Below are positions 16,862 to 20,959 of a stretch of DNA of 64,000 nt, piece after piece. Under the pieces are notes generated by a model that saw only the letters and a list, made by a program, of their open reading frames with translations, made no database searches and had not been told where the DNA came from. Position numbers and translations under genes: made by a program. This stretch comes from an uncultured Candidatus Peribacteria bacterium (lineage in GTDB: Bacteria > Patescibacteriota > Gracilibacteria > BD1-5 > UBA2023), in NCBI GenBank assembly GCA_964596675.1, contig CAZQUZ010000005.1, forward strand, positions 16,875 to 80,874, written 5' to 3'. Within the stretch, counting starts at the first letter, position 1; every line of letters starts with the position of its first letter.

Positions 16862-18823
16862 TTATTTCATCCACTCTTCTATATCTTCTCGTATCTCAGA
16901 AATGAGTCCCACGTCACGCAGATCTGCGAAGTGAAAGTCTGGTACTCATGACTGCCGGACGCCATATACCTCACCAGGTCATCTGAGTTCGAGGTCTATC
17001 TCTGCGAGTTCGAAGCCATCCGTTGTTTTTTCCATAGCCTTCAGTCTATCTGATTTATACTCCTTGGTCGTGAAGAGATAGCAGTACGACTGGTCATCAC
17101 CACGGCCGACACGTCCACGGAACTGATGAAGCTGCGACAGCCCAAATCTTTCTGCCGCCTCGATACACATCACCGTAGCATTCGGATTATTCACACCGAC
17201 TTCGACGACAGAGGTGGAGGAGAGGATATGTATCTTATTCTCATAAAATTCCTGCATGATGCGGTCTTTTTCCTTTCCGCTCATTTTTCCATGGATGAGT
17301 CCGATCGTGAGCCGTGGAAATACGCTCGAGAGCGTTATCTGCATCTCGACGGCACTCGATACCTCGAGCGTCTCAGACTCCTCGACGAGAGGGGATATCC
17401 AGTATACCTGCCGTCATTGACGGACTTCCTCCTCGATAAATCGATACACCTCCACGCGCTGATCTTCTCGTATCACTCGTGTGTGGATAGGCTTGCGCCC
17501 GACAGGATACTCATCGAGCACACTGACATCCTGGTCGCCGTATATCGTGAGAGCAAGGGTACGCGGGATAGGGGTCGCAGACATATTCAGTCTATGGGGC
17601 ACTATCTTCGACCGACTACAGTACTCTTCCAGGATTTTTCGCTGTTCCACACCGAATCTATGCTGCTCATCCACGACCACGAATCCGAGATTCGCGAATG
17701 CGACAGAGTCCTGGATGAGGGCATGCGTACCGAATACGATATCTGTCTGGCCACTTTTCAGTCTCTCGCGAGCATCTTCTTTCATGCGAGGGGTGAGTGA
17801 GCCGACGAGGAGGTCTGAGCGGATTCACCATTCCATGAGCCAGGTTTCATTGCCTGCGAAATGCTGTCGCGCGAGTATCTCCGTCGGCGCCATGATAGCG
17901 ACCTGGATGCCCTTACCGCGTATCGCATGTATGGCAGTGATGAGTGCGACAATCGTCTTCCCAGTGCCGACATCTCCCTGGAGGAGGCGTGCCATCGCAT
18001 GTGGTGCTTCCATATCTTTGAGGATTTGGAAGAGGACGATTTTTTGCTTATTCGTGAGGGGAAATGGGAGAGTAGCGATAATCTCCTTTATGAGCTCGGT
18101 ATCGAGGGATATCTGTGGTGCGAGTCCTGCGCTCGCGGTCTGGAGGGCGTGTTTGCGCTCGACTCCCACCATCTGGAATCGGAATAATTCTCCATACCCG
18201 AGCTCATGCTTCGCACGCTCGAAAGCCTCTACCGACGCAGGAAAGTGTATATCGCGAATATTCGCATTTTTCTCTCTGAGTCATTTTTTCTTTCGGATTT
18301 CGAGAGGGATATCATCTTCTATCGTCTCGAGAAATGATTTTAGATAACTCATCTTCTCACGTATCCAGCTACCGGGGATATAGTTCACATCACTGTATAC
18401 GGGCATGATCTCCTGGCGTTTTTCTCTATAGTGCTCGATCTCAGCACTCGGAAAAGAGAGTCGTCCATATTCGTACTTCGCCTTACCGAATATAAGTACC
18501 GTATCTCCACTCGCGAACTTCGAGAGTATCATACGCTGATTAAACCATACTGCCTCAGCATGTATACCATCCGAGTCGGTGAGGACAGCCTTTATGAGGA
18601 GTTTTTTATTTCGAGTCATCTCGTTCGTGAGGAGCTCTATCTTACACTTTATGGCTCGTTTCTCAGTGATATCGACGAGTGAGAACTGCGTCATGACATC
18701 ACTCTTATCCTCGTACTCACGCGGAAAGAGCGAGAGAAAGTCGAGCGCTGTCTCTATGCCCGCTTCCTTTAGCTTCTTTATGTATGTGTCCGTCGTATGG
18801 AGGAGTGACTTCGTGAGCTGCAT
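16862..18823 (-). CDS. recG: ATP-dependent DNA helicase RecG
   Basis: Track ORFs 16979..17344, 17414..17785, 17825..18172 and 18281..18823 are in one frame. It has a wedge/OB N-terminus plus GDVGTGKT, DEQHRFG, a TATPIPRT-like motif and QLHQFRGRVGRG. Confidence 0.93.
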
Positions 18824-18871: not shown

Positions 18872-18895
18872 TGAAAACCCAGCATGAGCTGGGTT
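18872..18895 (-). terminator. hairpin terminator (copy 1 of a repeated terminator)
   Basis: aacccagc-atga-gctgggtt hairpin. A near-identical hairpin is at 19296-19317. Confidence 0.55.
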
Positions 18896-18914
18896 ATAAA
18901 AAGAAAAAACTATG

Positions 18915-19178
18915 CTAGACTATGTATTTATGAGATAATCCACCTAAGGTTTGATATTTGGATTTCAAGTACTGAGATAGCTCTTGATTGATGTATTTTT
19001 GGTTTTTTGCTATCCAAAATGCAAATCGTTTGATATTGAAGTGTGCGATTTGCTCCACACTTTCGATGGTTAATCTTGTAAACATTCGAATGCCATGAAA
19101 TTTTTTTCGCATTTCTTCATCGAATCCTTTTCGTTCTTGAAGTTGTATTTTGGTTGGTTTTTGTTTTACTTGCGCCAT
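18915..19178 (-). CDS. small basic hypothetical protein (87 aa)
   Basis: Track ORF 18915..19199. The ATG at 19178 (MAQVKQK) is preferred because GGGAGAAG lies 5 nt upstream and the extra 7 codons fall inside the conserved leader. Confidence 0.5.
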   Translation of the reverse strand: MAQVKQKPTKIQLQERKGFDEEMRKKFHGIRMFTRLTIESVEQIAHFNIKRFAFWIAKNQKYINQELSQYLKSKYQTLGGLSHKYIV

Positions 19179-19250
19179 ATTTGCTTCTCCCGAAATCATA
19201 TCCGATACTTCAGCACAGAGCGGGATGCTCTGACTTGCAGGATATGATTT
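19179..19250 (-). promoter_or_regulatory. conserved structured 5' leader, copy 1
   Basis: About 70 nt that is nearly identical to 19674..19746. The outer stem is CATATCC/GGATATG and the inner hairpin is CAGAGC-ATCCC-GCTCTG. TTGACA-N16-TATATT lies just upstream (19255-19282). Confidence 0.5.
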
Positions 19251-19290
19251 GAGTAATATAGATTTTCTTATGTTTTTGTCAATTTTTTTT

Positions 19291-19317
19291 AAAATAAACC
19301 CAGCGTGAGCTGGGTTT
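19291..19317 (-). terminator. hairpin terminator (copy 2)
   Basis: aaacccagc-gtga-gctgggttt hairpin. Confidence 0.55.
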
Positions 19318-19364
19318 CGTTGGTGAGAGGAATTCGCCTTTCTATGAAAAACGAATTCCAGTAT

Positions 19365-19673
19365 TTATGCTGCGAGTAATTCCATACTTCGGAAATGAAT
19401 CGGTCTTTCTTTTCCAGGAGCTTTTCCATGAGCAAGGACTGTTCCACTACGCTCAACTACTCGTATATTCGCGACGGGAATTTGTGTAGGCTTGGGCAGT
19501 GCTGGCGTGAGATTAGTGTGACCTGCGCGTTTTTTATTTGGTACATCCACCTTTTTTGTATCGACTGCTTTTGGCTTTTTGTTTCTCCTATCTTGGGCTA
19601 GCTTGGCTGAGCGCTCGATACGAGATTTTTTTTGGATTGGCTCTTCTGTTATTTGTTGGCCTATAGTTGTCAT
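19365..19673 (-). CDS. small basic hypothetical protein (102 aa)
   Basis: Track ORF 19365..19694. The ATG at 19673 (MTTIGQQ) is preferred, with GGAGAAAA upstream. The protein is Lys-rich and not similar to the 18915 product. Confidence 0.5.
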   Translation of the reverse strand: MTTIGQQITEEPIQKKSRIERSAKLAQDRRNKKPKAVDTKKVDVPNKKRAGHTNLTPALPKPTQIPVANIRVVERSGTVLAHGKAPGKERPIHFRSMELLAA

Positions 19674-19746
19674 ATTTGTTTTCTCCGAAATCATATCCGA
19701 ATGTCTTCGACACAGAGCGGGATGCTCTGATCTGCAGGATGTGACC
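19674..19746 (-). promoter_or_regulatory. conserved structured 5' leader, copy 2
   Basis: Same motif as 19179..19250. A TTGACA box is at 19774-19779 (minus strand). Confidence 0.5.
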
Positions 19747-19804
19747 TACTAAAATTAATCAATTTTAGTAATTTGTCAATAATTTCTCTATAGAATCATG
19801 ATAA

Positions 19805-20959
19805 TTATGAATGACTCTTATATTCTCACCTTAATTTTGCCTGCATATTTTGTAATTCCTCTATATAGGAATCTATTATATCAATCTTTTCATGATTCGA
19901 TATACCAGAGAAGTTCTGTATCTTGCTGATAAGTGTATTATGAATATGTCATACTGATGTAATATGTTTTATGCTTTTTATGGACTCATCGAATCGAATC
20001 AATTTTCACTCATCAGATTTATAGAATTTTGCTTCATTTTCAGCTTTCTTGAGTACATGTTCATAACTTTCTCCAGCTTCTCGTATGGCTGTTCCCCAGC
20101 TCAGTCTAAAAGTATAATCCATGCTTTCGAGAAGCAGGGCCTTGTCTTTATATTTAGGGGCTAATCATTTATTGGTACTTTCGACTATTTGGATTAGCCT
20201 TTTTGCCATATTATCGAGACTGTCTTTTGTCATTTTTTCTTTACTCATCTCATCATAGCGTATAAGTACGATAAACTCATCTCCACCTATACGAATTATT
20301 TCATCTCATTCTCTATGAAAAACCTCTCAGAGGAGATTGGCCATGAGTTGTATCATCTGATCTCAGATAATTTGTCAAAAACGATTATTTACACTTTTTA
20401 GATTATCTGCATCGGCGAATAGTATCGCATAGTGTGCATTCGGATCATTATCAAGATTTGTTATTATTTTTTTATAACGAAGATCATTGGATACGTTCGT
20501 GAGAGCGTCTTTATGCATCTCTATGATATTTGAGATAGTATCTATGATATTCTTACTTTTTCATCTGAGTATATTTTTTAGTATATCATAGTGTAAAAAC
20601 TCTTTTACCCCGGTTATGAGAAGTATATGCTTTTTATCCTGTATGTAGATGCCACCATCTCCTAGAAAAAATGTATCATCGGTATGTAAAAGCTTATTTT
20701 TATCACTCTGAGGGAGAGTGACGACAGTACGATGATGATAATATGTACCATCTACATTCTTGAGTAAGTATATGGAGCTATTTTTGATACTTTTCCTTAA
20801 AAGTGATTCAGCATTTTGTATAAAAGAGTGTATATCAGGATGATCTGACACAATTAGGGCTGCATCTATTCTTTTATGCATCACATGAACGAGTGTAGAT
20901 GAAGAATCTTCATTCAGTTCCCGAATTCCCATAGGATGTTGCACATTTAGTCCTTTCAT
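19805..20959 (-). CDS. GGDEF-domain diguanylate cyclase with unknown N-terminal domain (384 aa)
   Basis: Track ORF 20561..20959 continues through about 9 TGA to TAA 19805-19807. Motifs: ILFADADNLKSVNNRFG, RIGGDEFIVLI, SWGTA. Confidence 0.85.

Follow-up and report, generated by a model that had tools for sequence, protein, structure and literature searches.

A covarying leader RNA precedes mostly unrelated small genes at one locus of a Gracilibacteria genome and its relatives

Why should two neighbouring small genes share a leader and a terminator when the proteins that they encode have nothing in common? The question is raised by two adjacent transcription units, A and B, on the minus strand of a 64,000-nt stretch of contig CAZQUZ010000005.1 (hereafter the window, with positions counted from its first letter). 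The contig comes from an uncultured Candidatus Peribacteria bacterium of the Gracilibacteria, whose 1.16-Mb genome is 96% complete. An earlier note on this DNA had described each unit as a TTGACA promoter followed by a leader, a Shine-Dalgarno site, a small open reading frame (ORF) and a terminator, and all of these are present in both units. Here we report that selection maintains the leader as a genuine RNA structure, and that at this locus the coding sequence between conserved untranslated regions (UTRs) has been replaced exactly from ATG to stop. The parts of the two units are listed first; bit scores refer to the covariance models R2 and R3, which are described below.

19752–19779, minus strand: promoter of unit A, with −35 TTGACA (19779-19774), a 16-nt spacer and −10 TAATTT (19757-19752)
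19688–19747, minus strand: structured leader of unit A, seen in covariance-model matches of 68.6 bits (R2, E = 6e-12) and 56.9 bits (R3), in its fold and in the pair counts
19747-19737 with 19698-19688, minus strand: outer stem P1 of unit A, AGGTCACATCC pairing with GGATATGATTT
Between the arms of P1 of unit A, minus strand: junction J1 UGCA; short helix P2ext, GAU/GUC, with a bulged U; junction J2 GAAGACAUUC
19729-19713, minus strand: inner hairpin P2 of unit A, CAGAGC, loop AUCCC, GCUCUG
19671–19686, minus strand: ribosome-binding region of unit A, GGAG (19686-19683) and ATG (19673-19671)
19365–19673, minus strand: ORF A, 102 aa
19291–19316, minus strand: intrinsic terminator of unit A, AACCCAGCTCACGCTGGGTT (19316-19297) followed by TATTTT
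19255–19282, minus strand: promoter of unit B, TTGACA (19282-19277), 16 nt, TATATT (19260-19255), with an A8 tract in front
19193–19250, minus strand: structured leader of unit B, covariance-model matches of 67.1 bits (R2) and 60.7 bits (R3)
19250-19240 with 19203-19193, minus strand: outer stem P1 of unit B, AAATCATATCC pairing with GGATATGATTT
Between the arms of P1 of unit B, minus strand: J1 UGCA; P2ext AGU/GCU with a bulged U; P2 (19232-19216); J2 GAAGUAUC
19176–19191, minus strand: ribosome-binding region of unit B, GGGAG (19191-19187) and ATG (19178-19176)
18915–19178, minus strand: ORF B, 87 aa
18870–18895, minus strand: intrinsic terminator of unit B, AACCCAGCTCATGCTGGGTT (18895-18876) followed by a T-rich tail, found by the terminator scan

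The two leaders are 82-89% identical and are closer to each other than to any copy elsewhere, and the terminators agree at 19 of 20 positions. Promoter spacers and coding sequences of the two units do not align, and beyond leader and terminator no DNA similarity between the units was found on the same or the opposite strand, which rules out an origin of the units by inversion or frameshift. The window holds exactly two occurrences of the 17-nt inner hairpin CAGAGCATCCCGCTCTG, against 0.15 expected by chance, and the whole genome holds two copies of the leader, adjacent and in the same orientation. Both leaders fold into the outer stem and inner hairpin that the earlier note had drawn, with one C-A mismatch in the outer stem of unit A; the minimum free energies are −23.6 kcal/mol for unit B (z = −3.57) and −16.4 kcal/mol for unit A (z = −1.0). 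The promoter of unit B matches the consensus at 11 of 12 positions in the promoter scan. The −10 hexamer of unit A matches at 3 of 6 and was hence left unflagged by the consensus scan.

We compared the window copies with leaders from a second genus, g3. With only the two window copies behind it, covariance model R1 proved too narrow to pick up the leaders of g3. In plain MAFFT alignments the 3′ arm of P1 and the P2 hairpin were misplaced, and a seed alignment of four leaders was hence guided by hand, with a few N as padding inside P2, before realignment by the model. In the seed 98.6% of cells are paired and eight pairs are changed on both sides, and the resulting model (R2) found six further g3 copies. 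The final alignment, from which model R3 was made, contains ten real sequences placed by the model, two from the window and eight from g3, representing eight genomes and two genera. In this model-made alignment 97.2% of cells are paired, 12 of the 18 pairs show double-sided changes and 25 extra pair types appear; none of 500 shuffles reached its covariation score. When the 3′ partners were moved by 1-3 columns as a control, only 33-45% of cells remained paired.

Two further observations favour an RNA over a palindrome in the DNA. Several pairs are G-U, on the sense strand only, and between the two window copies an AG to GA change on one side of P2ext is compensated by CU to UC on its 3′ side. 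The consensus, read 5′ to 3′, consists of P1 with 9-11 bp, J1 UGCA(A), a 3-bp helix, the P2 hairpin CAG...CUG with 5-6 bp on which it is stacked, a bulged U, the partner of the 3-bp helix, J2 and the closing arm of P1. J2 reads (C)CCAAG in g3 and (C/U)(U/C)GAAG in the window, and is followed by 0-14 variable nucleotides before the closing arm. All ten copies keep the same unpaired nucleotides in the asymmetric internal loop, 5′ UGCAAG and 3′ (C/G)AAG, as well as the CAG/CUG base of P2, while the helices around them covary. The position relative to the promoter is also fixed: in 10 of 10 copies the −10 hexamer ends 4-5 nt ahead of the start of the leader model and 6-7 nt ahead of the first P1 pair. 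The argument of the earlier note, that RNA elements conserved beside unconserved coding sequences are likely to be functional, is supported by the covariation.

How widespread is the leader? Across 89 genomes of the family, R2 matched only in g3 and in the window's own genome. When 60 relatives were searched with the leader by BLAST, nothing but chance matches came up, of 14-28 nt and inside coding sequences, and R3 with its filters off found no further significant member in 22 loci adjacent to sod (the superoxide dismutase gene) or recG. Diverged variants do exist, in a third genus and in the window's own genus, and those of G084/G086/G074, G017 and G001 (genomes of relatives are given by such numbers) were recognised only by eye and folding. 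Rfam 15 gave no gathering-level match in the 64-kb window, only terminator-driven sub-threshold noise between 18800 and 19900 at E ≤ 10, and nothing on the leader in six related loci at E ≤ 1; a sub-threshold match of 25 bits to rsmX in one g3 3′UTR is at noise level. The leader therefore belongs to no Rfam family and is undescribed. The search that the earlier note had proposed, of the genome, its relatives and Rfam, thus yields two copies in the host, eight in a second genus, the diverged variants and no Rfam entry.

We also note a 90-aa gene (MSSEKGKVVDLALAAV...) outside the window, on the minus strand of contig C7 near 33763, with a TTGACA promoter and an 81-nt leader that has a 5′ hairpin. 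This leader contains CUGUGACUGAAAG, similar to CUGUGCUGAAG of the unit B leader, and the product looks HU-like only as a guess by eye.

The related leaders all lie at one syntenic locus. In the family the order is an MraY-like gene, the divergent sod, the unit or units, and then folD or another gene; in the window the gene at the far end is recG, and a GGDEF gene has been inserted after sod, so that the order there is MraY-like gene, divergent sod, GGDEF gene, units, recG. The covariance-model matches lie 110-170 nt from the sod start codon, or 670 nt for the second tandem unit of G075; in the window they follow the GGDEF gene. Small proteins of at least five types, basic and mostly unrelated in appearance, stand behind the leader at this locus, with the following occurrences:

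Type A (ORF A): window, G086
Type B (ORF B): window, G013, G073, G084; also G094, G005 and G031, behind other leaders
Type C: G085, G078, G075
Type D: G036
Type E: G072, G075

The window's genome has types A and B alone, at this locus only. G075 carries two tandem units of types C and E, 500 bp apart, as in the window, and the two units of G017, of the third genus, are likewise in tandem, with compact leaders that are nearly identical (GUCACUUCAGAAAUGGUUCUGUG.GUGAC); one unit encodes an ORF B-like protein and the other an unrelated one. In genus g3 the homologs of ORF B stand behind TTGACA promoters and leaders of the same architecture, with different helix sequences.

The exchange of coding sequences is seen most directly by comparing G084 with G086. 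Their promoters, leaders, Shine-Dalgarno regions, 3′UTRs and terminators are about 90% identical. The coding sequences, of type B in G084 and type A in G086, cannot be aligned, and homology stops at the ATG and resumes at the last codon before the TAA. G074 has the same leader type with a type C coding sequence, so that, within a single genus, three species have one UTR frame around coding sequences of type A, B and C, which upholds the cassette-type arrangement suggested in the earlier note. The unit of G084, a genome from another genus than the window's, ends with the same terminator 16-mer CCCAGCTCACGCTGGG as unit A. ORF B is 36-41% identical to its homologs whether or not they come from the same genus, whereas the N-terminus of RecG is 86% identical between the window's genome and G005; the content of the slot thus turns over far faster than its neighbours.

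In the window's genus the stretch before recG holds other small ORFs, including types D and C, novel types and, in G006, a RelE/Phd-like pair; each small ORF stands behind a TTGACA promoter and a 5′ hairpin, usually with an UAUUCCCUGAGGAGGGG Shine-Dalgarno hairpin. In G006 (locus L066) a RelE/ParE-like toxin gene and a Phd/YefM-like antitoxin gene replace the leader-bearing small genes in the 500 nt before recG. More distant genomes keep a 5′ hairpin and a Shine-Dalgarno hairpin at the slot with different sequences, and in nearly all units the Shine-Dalgarno site sits in a small hairpin, which in unit A is a weak UUUC/GAAA mini-hairpin.

The 3′UTRs of the g3 units (loci L033, L034, L036, L046, L056 and L058) are themselves conserved and structured: CCATTCTCT is followed by CCTACATTTTGTAGG, then AAGGGAATGG and then the terminator. 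Immediately behind the stop codon, most of them start with a CCUCC-like run that is complementary to the GGAGGGG Shine-Dalgarno site of the same unit, recalling the pairing of 5′ and 3′UTR in the hbs mRNA of B. subtilis. The window units have no clear anti-Shine-Dalgarno run in the 3′UTR (19320-19335 for unit A), RNAduplex of 5′ leader against 3′UTR gave inconsistent z-scores, and no long-range pairing is claimed for them.

The proteins of the window units are unrelated, as the earlier note had held: hhalign gives ORF A and ORF B a probability of 0.1%, and their predicted folds also differ. ORF A has a Lys-rich, disordered N-terminal part of about 65 aa and a C-terminal beta-hairpin, and its AlphaFold2 model reaches a predicted local distance difference test score (pLDDT) of 80-88 only for residues 70-101. 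Its single homolog stands at this locus in G086 and is 35% identical from end to end (E = 7e-5); ORF A has no Pfam match, and a word-based protein search gave nothing for it. ORF B belongs to a small family restricted to Gracilibacteria, with 20 clusters among 1.84 billion representative proteins and the motifs FN[VI]RRLA[YH]W and, at the C-terminus, GGL..RHF[AV]. There are six homologs in genomes of the family (E from 1e-13 to 8e-6), and the relatives that bear homologs are metagenome-assembled genomes of Candidatus Gracilibacteria. Its AlphaFold2 model is a four-helix fold (mean pLDDT 84) with no match among PDB folds (best E = 1.8) or in Pfam, and the word-based protein search returned the query itself only. 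Among the types, B and C are the only pair with a weak relation, possibly a distant link (hhalign probability 41%, E = 2.7e-4). The two results that the earlier note had named as fatal to its reading were thus not obtained: the leader has other copies with covariation, and the ORFs are not homologous.

The G086 protein aligns from ATG 19673 of ORF A, and the homologs of ORF B align from ATG 19178. A further ATG lies in frame in both units, seven codons upstream of the start that has the Shine-Dalgarno site (MISGEAN-M and MISEKTN-M; window 19194-19199 and 19689-19694). It is inside the 3′ arm of P1 and has no Shine-Dalgarno site. As the g3 leaders lack it, this ATG is probably unused. A short C-terminal motif, P-x-x-(R)-H-F, recurs in many otherwise unrelated slot proteins, namely in types B, D and E, in G011 and in ORF A (19365-19400), for example as PSRHFV, PSLHRNF, PSQRHYF, TPHFIS and RPIHFRS. 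It could be a shared interaction or sorting signal, or chance.

Units A and B lie on the minus strand between the following genes, of which the helicase gene comes after recG:

19805–20959: GGDEF gene (Pfam GGDEF, E = 3e-16)
16862–18823, minus strand: recG, 653 aa, with a TGA at the Gly of the conserved RGPGE motif and five in-frame TGA codons
13182–16793: DEAH-type helicase gene, 1203 aa, with 18 in-frame TGA codons

The start of recG (18823) is 47 nt beyond the terminator region of unit B. The host uses genetic code 25, in which TGA is read as Gly, since recG forms a single 653-aa frame under code 25 alone; recG and the helicase gene are readable only with this assignment and are fragmented by standard-code gene calling. 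ORF A and ORF B contain no in-frame TGA. In G094 (locus L035), G005 (L037) and G031 (L038), where TGA is also Gly, the ORF B homolog is directly followed by TGA; the others end with TAA or TAG. Read as Gly, this codon would leave the frame open across the structured 3′UTR and the terminator; in G005 it would continue into recG. Either TGA is still a stop there, or these mRNAs lack a stop codon, or the copies come from a donor with the standard code.

What, then, does the leader do? Judging from sequence, structure and context, we favour a reading that we hold to be about equally likely right or wrong: the leader would act in cis as a 5′-terminal stabiliser and translation-control element, equipped with a recognition loop and framing exchangeable coding cassettes. 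Units A and B would be paralogous copies of a lineage-specific expression frame, made up of a consensus sigma-70 promoter, the leader, the Shine-Dalgarno site, a coding slot, and the 3′UTR with its terminator. The distance from the −10 hexamer to the first P1 pair places P1 at the predicted first transcribed nucleotide, and the genome encodes RNase J (TIGR00649, 404 bits) as well as RNase Y (TIGR03319, 525 bits), with scores that exceed the curated cut-offs. With a helix at the predicted 5′ end and both nucleases present, the leader would most likely be, by analogy, a protective 5′-terminal stem-loop that blocks in cis the Bacillus-type decay of the small-gene mRNAs. Together with the strong Shine-Dalgarno site in its small hairpin, it would set both the stability and the translation of the mRNA.

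Three observations fit such a stabiliser: the hairpin architecture is kept at the slot while its sequence changes, the element goes with a single locus and not with a regulon, and the downstream genes have no common theme. The invariant junction nucleotides exceed what a stabiliser needs and suggest an added recognition site: the internal loop would probably dock a trans-acting factor particular to the lineage, in all likelihood a protein, and this factor would regulate the two units jointly. In addition, the UTRs that the units share may supply the homology for duplication, loss or replacement of whole coding cassettes by recombination; exchange between conserved leaders and 3′UTRs of different units or donors would explain how coding sequences are swapped so precisely.

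Several points weigh against this reading. A pure stabiliser would require no invariant loop nucleotides, and no candidate for the factor that would bind them was found; a tblastn search gave no homolog of CsrA, Hfq or CspA. The transcription start is predicted from promoter geometry. The outer helix of unit A carries its mismatch and the z-score of this leader is weak. The sample is small, with ten well-aligned copies from eight genomes and two genera, and since the seed was guided by hand and the larger alignment fitted by the model, the pair counts are biased towards the structure. Finally, R3 with strict filters found the same ten places only among 204 genomes of the order (8 of the 204), and in scans of metagenome contigs a window-type pattern gave no matches and a g3-type pattern gave 14, all of them chance matches without promoter or P1.

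The alternative that survives best overlaps with the stabiliser reading and does not exclude it. The loop UGCAAG/(C/G)AAG would be an RNA operator, bound by a dedicated trans-acting repressor or activator, possibly a basic protein encoded in the slot, that governs the translation of all units, with 5′ protection secondary. We regard this as unlikely on present evidence, but as the most serious competitor. It would account directly for junction nucleotides and a P2 base that stay invariant in ten copies while the helices covary, for the presence of the same leader on two adjacent units in the window, G075 and G017, and for the Shine-Dalgarno site lying in a small hairpin in nearly all units; basic proteins with disordered Lys-rich tails are also typical binders of nucleic acids. 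However, no such binding protein was found, simple autoregulation by the product fits poorly with different proteins behind the same leader across species, and the junctions differ in the distant variants (G005, G004, G001 and the G084 type).

A broader view, which we consider somewhat less probable again, takes the locus as a whole for a cassette system framed by UTRs. The regulatory frame would be what is selected and inherited, and effector-like coding sequences of independent origin would be swapped from ATG to stop by recombination between the conserved UTRs, for instance after natural transformation; the loop would be the operator of an RNA-binding regulator or, less likely, a ligand sensor.

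That the leader is a riboswitch, a small-molecule aptamer whose ligand governs exposure of the Shine-Dalgarno site, we find improbable. Covarying helices around invariant unpaired nucleotides are the pattern of an aptamer, and a hairpin containing the Shine-Dalgarno site follows directly. However, no genome has the element anywhere but at the one locus (the same eight of the 204 in the order, always at the sod-adjacent locus), in front of small proteins that are mostly unrelated, have no Pfam matches and share no metabolic or transport theme. Its core sequence is not kept beyond two genera, its length of about 60 nt in essentially one irregular hairpin is small for an aptamer, the folds reveal no obvious alternative pairing between P1 and the Shine-Dalgarno hairpin, and Rfam has no match. 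The suggestion of a riboswitch-like element in the earlier note is thus not borne out: there is no sign of a ligand, and what speaks against it is the restriction to one locus, the lack of functional coherence among the downstream genes, and a junction whose sequence is kept in close genera only.

Very improbable, too, is an element that works at the level of DNA, as inverted repeats forming a protein operator or an attC-type recombination site for cassette exchange. Coding sequences are indeed exchanged at the locus, and a structured, imperfect palindrome does stand beside each cassette. However, the boundaries of the swaps are at the ATG and the stop codon and not at the hairpin, with the Shine-Dalgarno region and the whole 3′UTR conserved, every unit brings a promoter and a terminator of its own, as integron cassettes do not, and no integrase was seen among the neighbouring genes. 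The half-sites are about 40 nt apart, and the G-U pairs of the sense strand would be C-A mismatches in the other DNA strand.

We give just as little credit to the idea that the transcripts have a dual function or are mainly non-coding and work as regulatory small RNAs, the CCUCC-like stretch behind the stop codon being one possible means, while the ORFs are secondary. Most g3 3′UTRs do begin with such a run, complementary to their own Shine-Dalgarno site, but the 3′UTRs of the window lack a clear one. Moreover, the family of ORF B is conserved and its fold confidently modelled, and ORF A has a homolog that matches over its whole length; a strong Shine-Dalgarno site and an ATG are present in every unit, and no unit without an ORF was seen at the slot in the family genomes examined.

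Least credible of all is a neutral leftover of a recent segmental duplication or gene conversion, with functionless non-coding repeats, which would suit two adjacent copies that are the only ones in the genome and closest to each other (82-89%), but which is contradicted by homologous leaders with compensatory changes in another genus, by compensated pairs between the window copies themselves, by the complete lack of residual similarity between the coding sequences, which a recent duplication would leave, and by the homologs that both ORFs have elsewhere. A few other candidates were rejected. A palindromic repeat of the miniature inverted-repeat transposable element (MITE) or repetitive extragenic palindromic (REP) type does not suit two copies that are adjacent and share orientation and context. 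Control by CsrA/Rsm was dropped because tblastn with approximate E. coli and B. subtilis queries found no CsrA match better than E = 0.09 and the P2 loops have no conserved GGA. The AUG in J1 of g3, which might start an upstream open reading frame, is CUG in the window. A kink-turn and antisense coding were both rejected as well.

Patescibacteria have very few regulators, and to our knowledge almost nothing is known of post-transcriptional control in this group, the Candidate Phyla Radiation; many genes in the window's genome look leaderless. A leader RNA that is supported by covariation and absent from Rfam offers a concrete, testable regulatory element for these organisms. The pattern itself is unusual, in that UTRs are conserved while the coding part is replaced from start to stop, both across species and between tandem copies, and it makes the locus a clean natural case of regulatory frames that persist while their cargo turns over. 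The locus also bears on what fast-changing small basic proteins do for an organism that lives as an episymbiont or predator. Should the leader be no more than a stabiliser hairpin, the addition is modest, one new lineage-specific 5′UTR motif. If instead the locus is a cassette system framed by UTRs, an ultra-small episymbiont would gain a hypervariable, co-regulated set of small proteins.

Several known systems resemble the locus in part. Sibling small-RNA genes in tandem are likewise adjacent promoter-to-terminator units with near-identical structured 5′ parts, but here each unit holds a conserved protein-coding frame with a Shine-Dalgarno site. Phage morons are autonomous gene units running from promoter to terminator, and like them the units are self-contained, with their own promoter and intrinsic terminator, between housekeeping genes and variable among relatives; unlike them, they have no prophage context, occupy one conserved chromosomal slot and have homologous UTRs. 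The attC cassettes of integrons share with the units small, diverse and exchangeable tandem ORFs beside imperfect palindromes in which structure is conserved over sequence. Here, however, the hairpin is 5′ of the ORF, between promoter and Shine-Dalgarno site, promoter and terminator belong to the unit, the swaps end at ATG and stop rather than in the hairpin, and the neighbours include no integrase.

In the upstream homology box (UHB) genes of Borrelia burgdorferi, described by Marconi et al. in 1996 and Sung et al. in 1998/2000, recombination reportedly reshuffles genes behind a conserved 5′ region. The UHB is a promoter/operator region at the DNA level, on multicopy prophage plasmids, and the products are surface lipoproteins. 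In the UHB family (ospE/ospF/elp, the erp loci; the studies are cited in PMC10016077) a highly conserved 5′ flank reportedly stands before coding families that are unrelated. The likeness lies in this conserved 5′ regulatory region ahead of unrelated coding sequences. In the Gracilibacteria, unlike in Borrelia, the conserved part is a covarying RNA structure together with a conserved 3′UTR, at a single chromosomal locus, and the proteins are small, basic and cytoplasmic-looking.

The nearest functional parallel may be found among 5′-terminal stabiliser stem-loops, such as the aprE leader, ermC and the E. coli ompA 5′UTR. In Bacillus-type decay, RNase J and RNase Y are held off by structure at the 5′ terminus and by a ribosome that occupies a strong Shine-Dalgarno site; the best-studied example, hbs, encodes a small basic protein. 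In the hbs mRNA of B. subtilis, a highly structured 5′UTR, a strong Shine-Dalgarno site and an interaction of the 5′UTR with the 3′UTR control access by RNase Y and RNase J1 (PMC5737220). Our leader has no sequence or Rfam relationship to these elements, is common to unrelated genes and has an invariant internal loop, and its stabilising effect is predicted by analogy. The setting is nevertheless similar: a small, basic and probably abundant protein, a strong promoter, a structured 5′UTR and a strong Shine-Dalgarno site, in a host that has both RNase J and RNase Y, and, as in hbs, a 3′UTR stretch complementary to the Shine-Dalgarno region in many g3 units.

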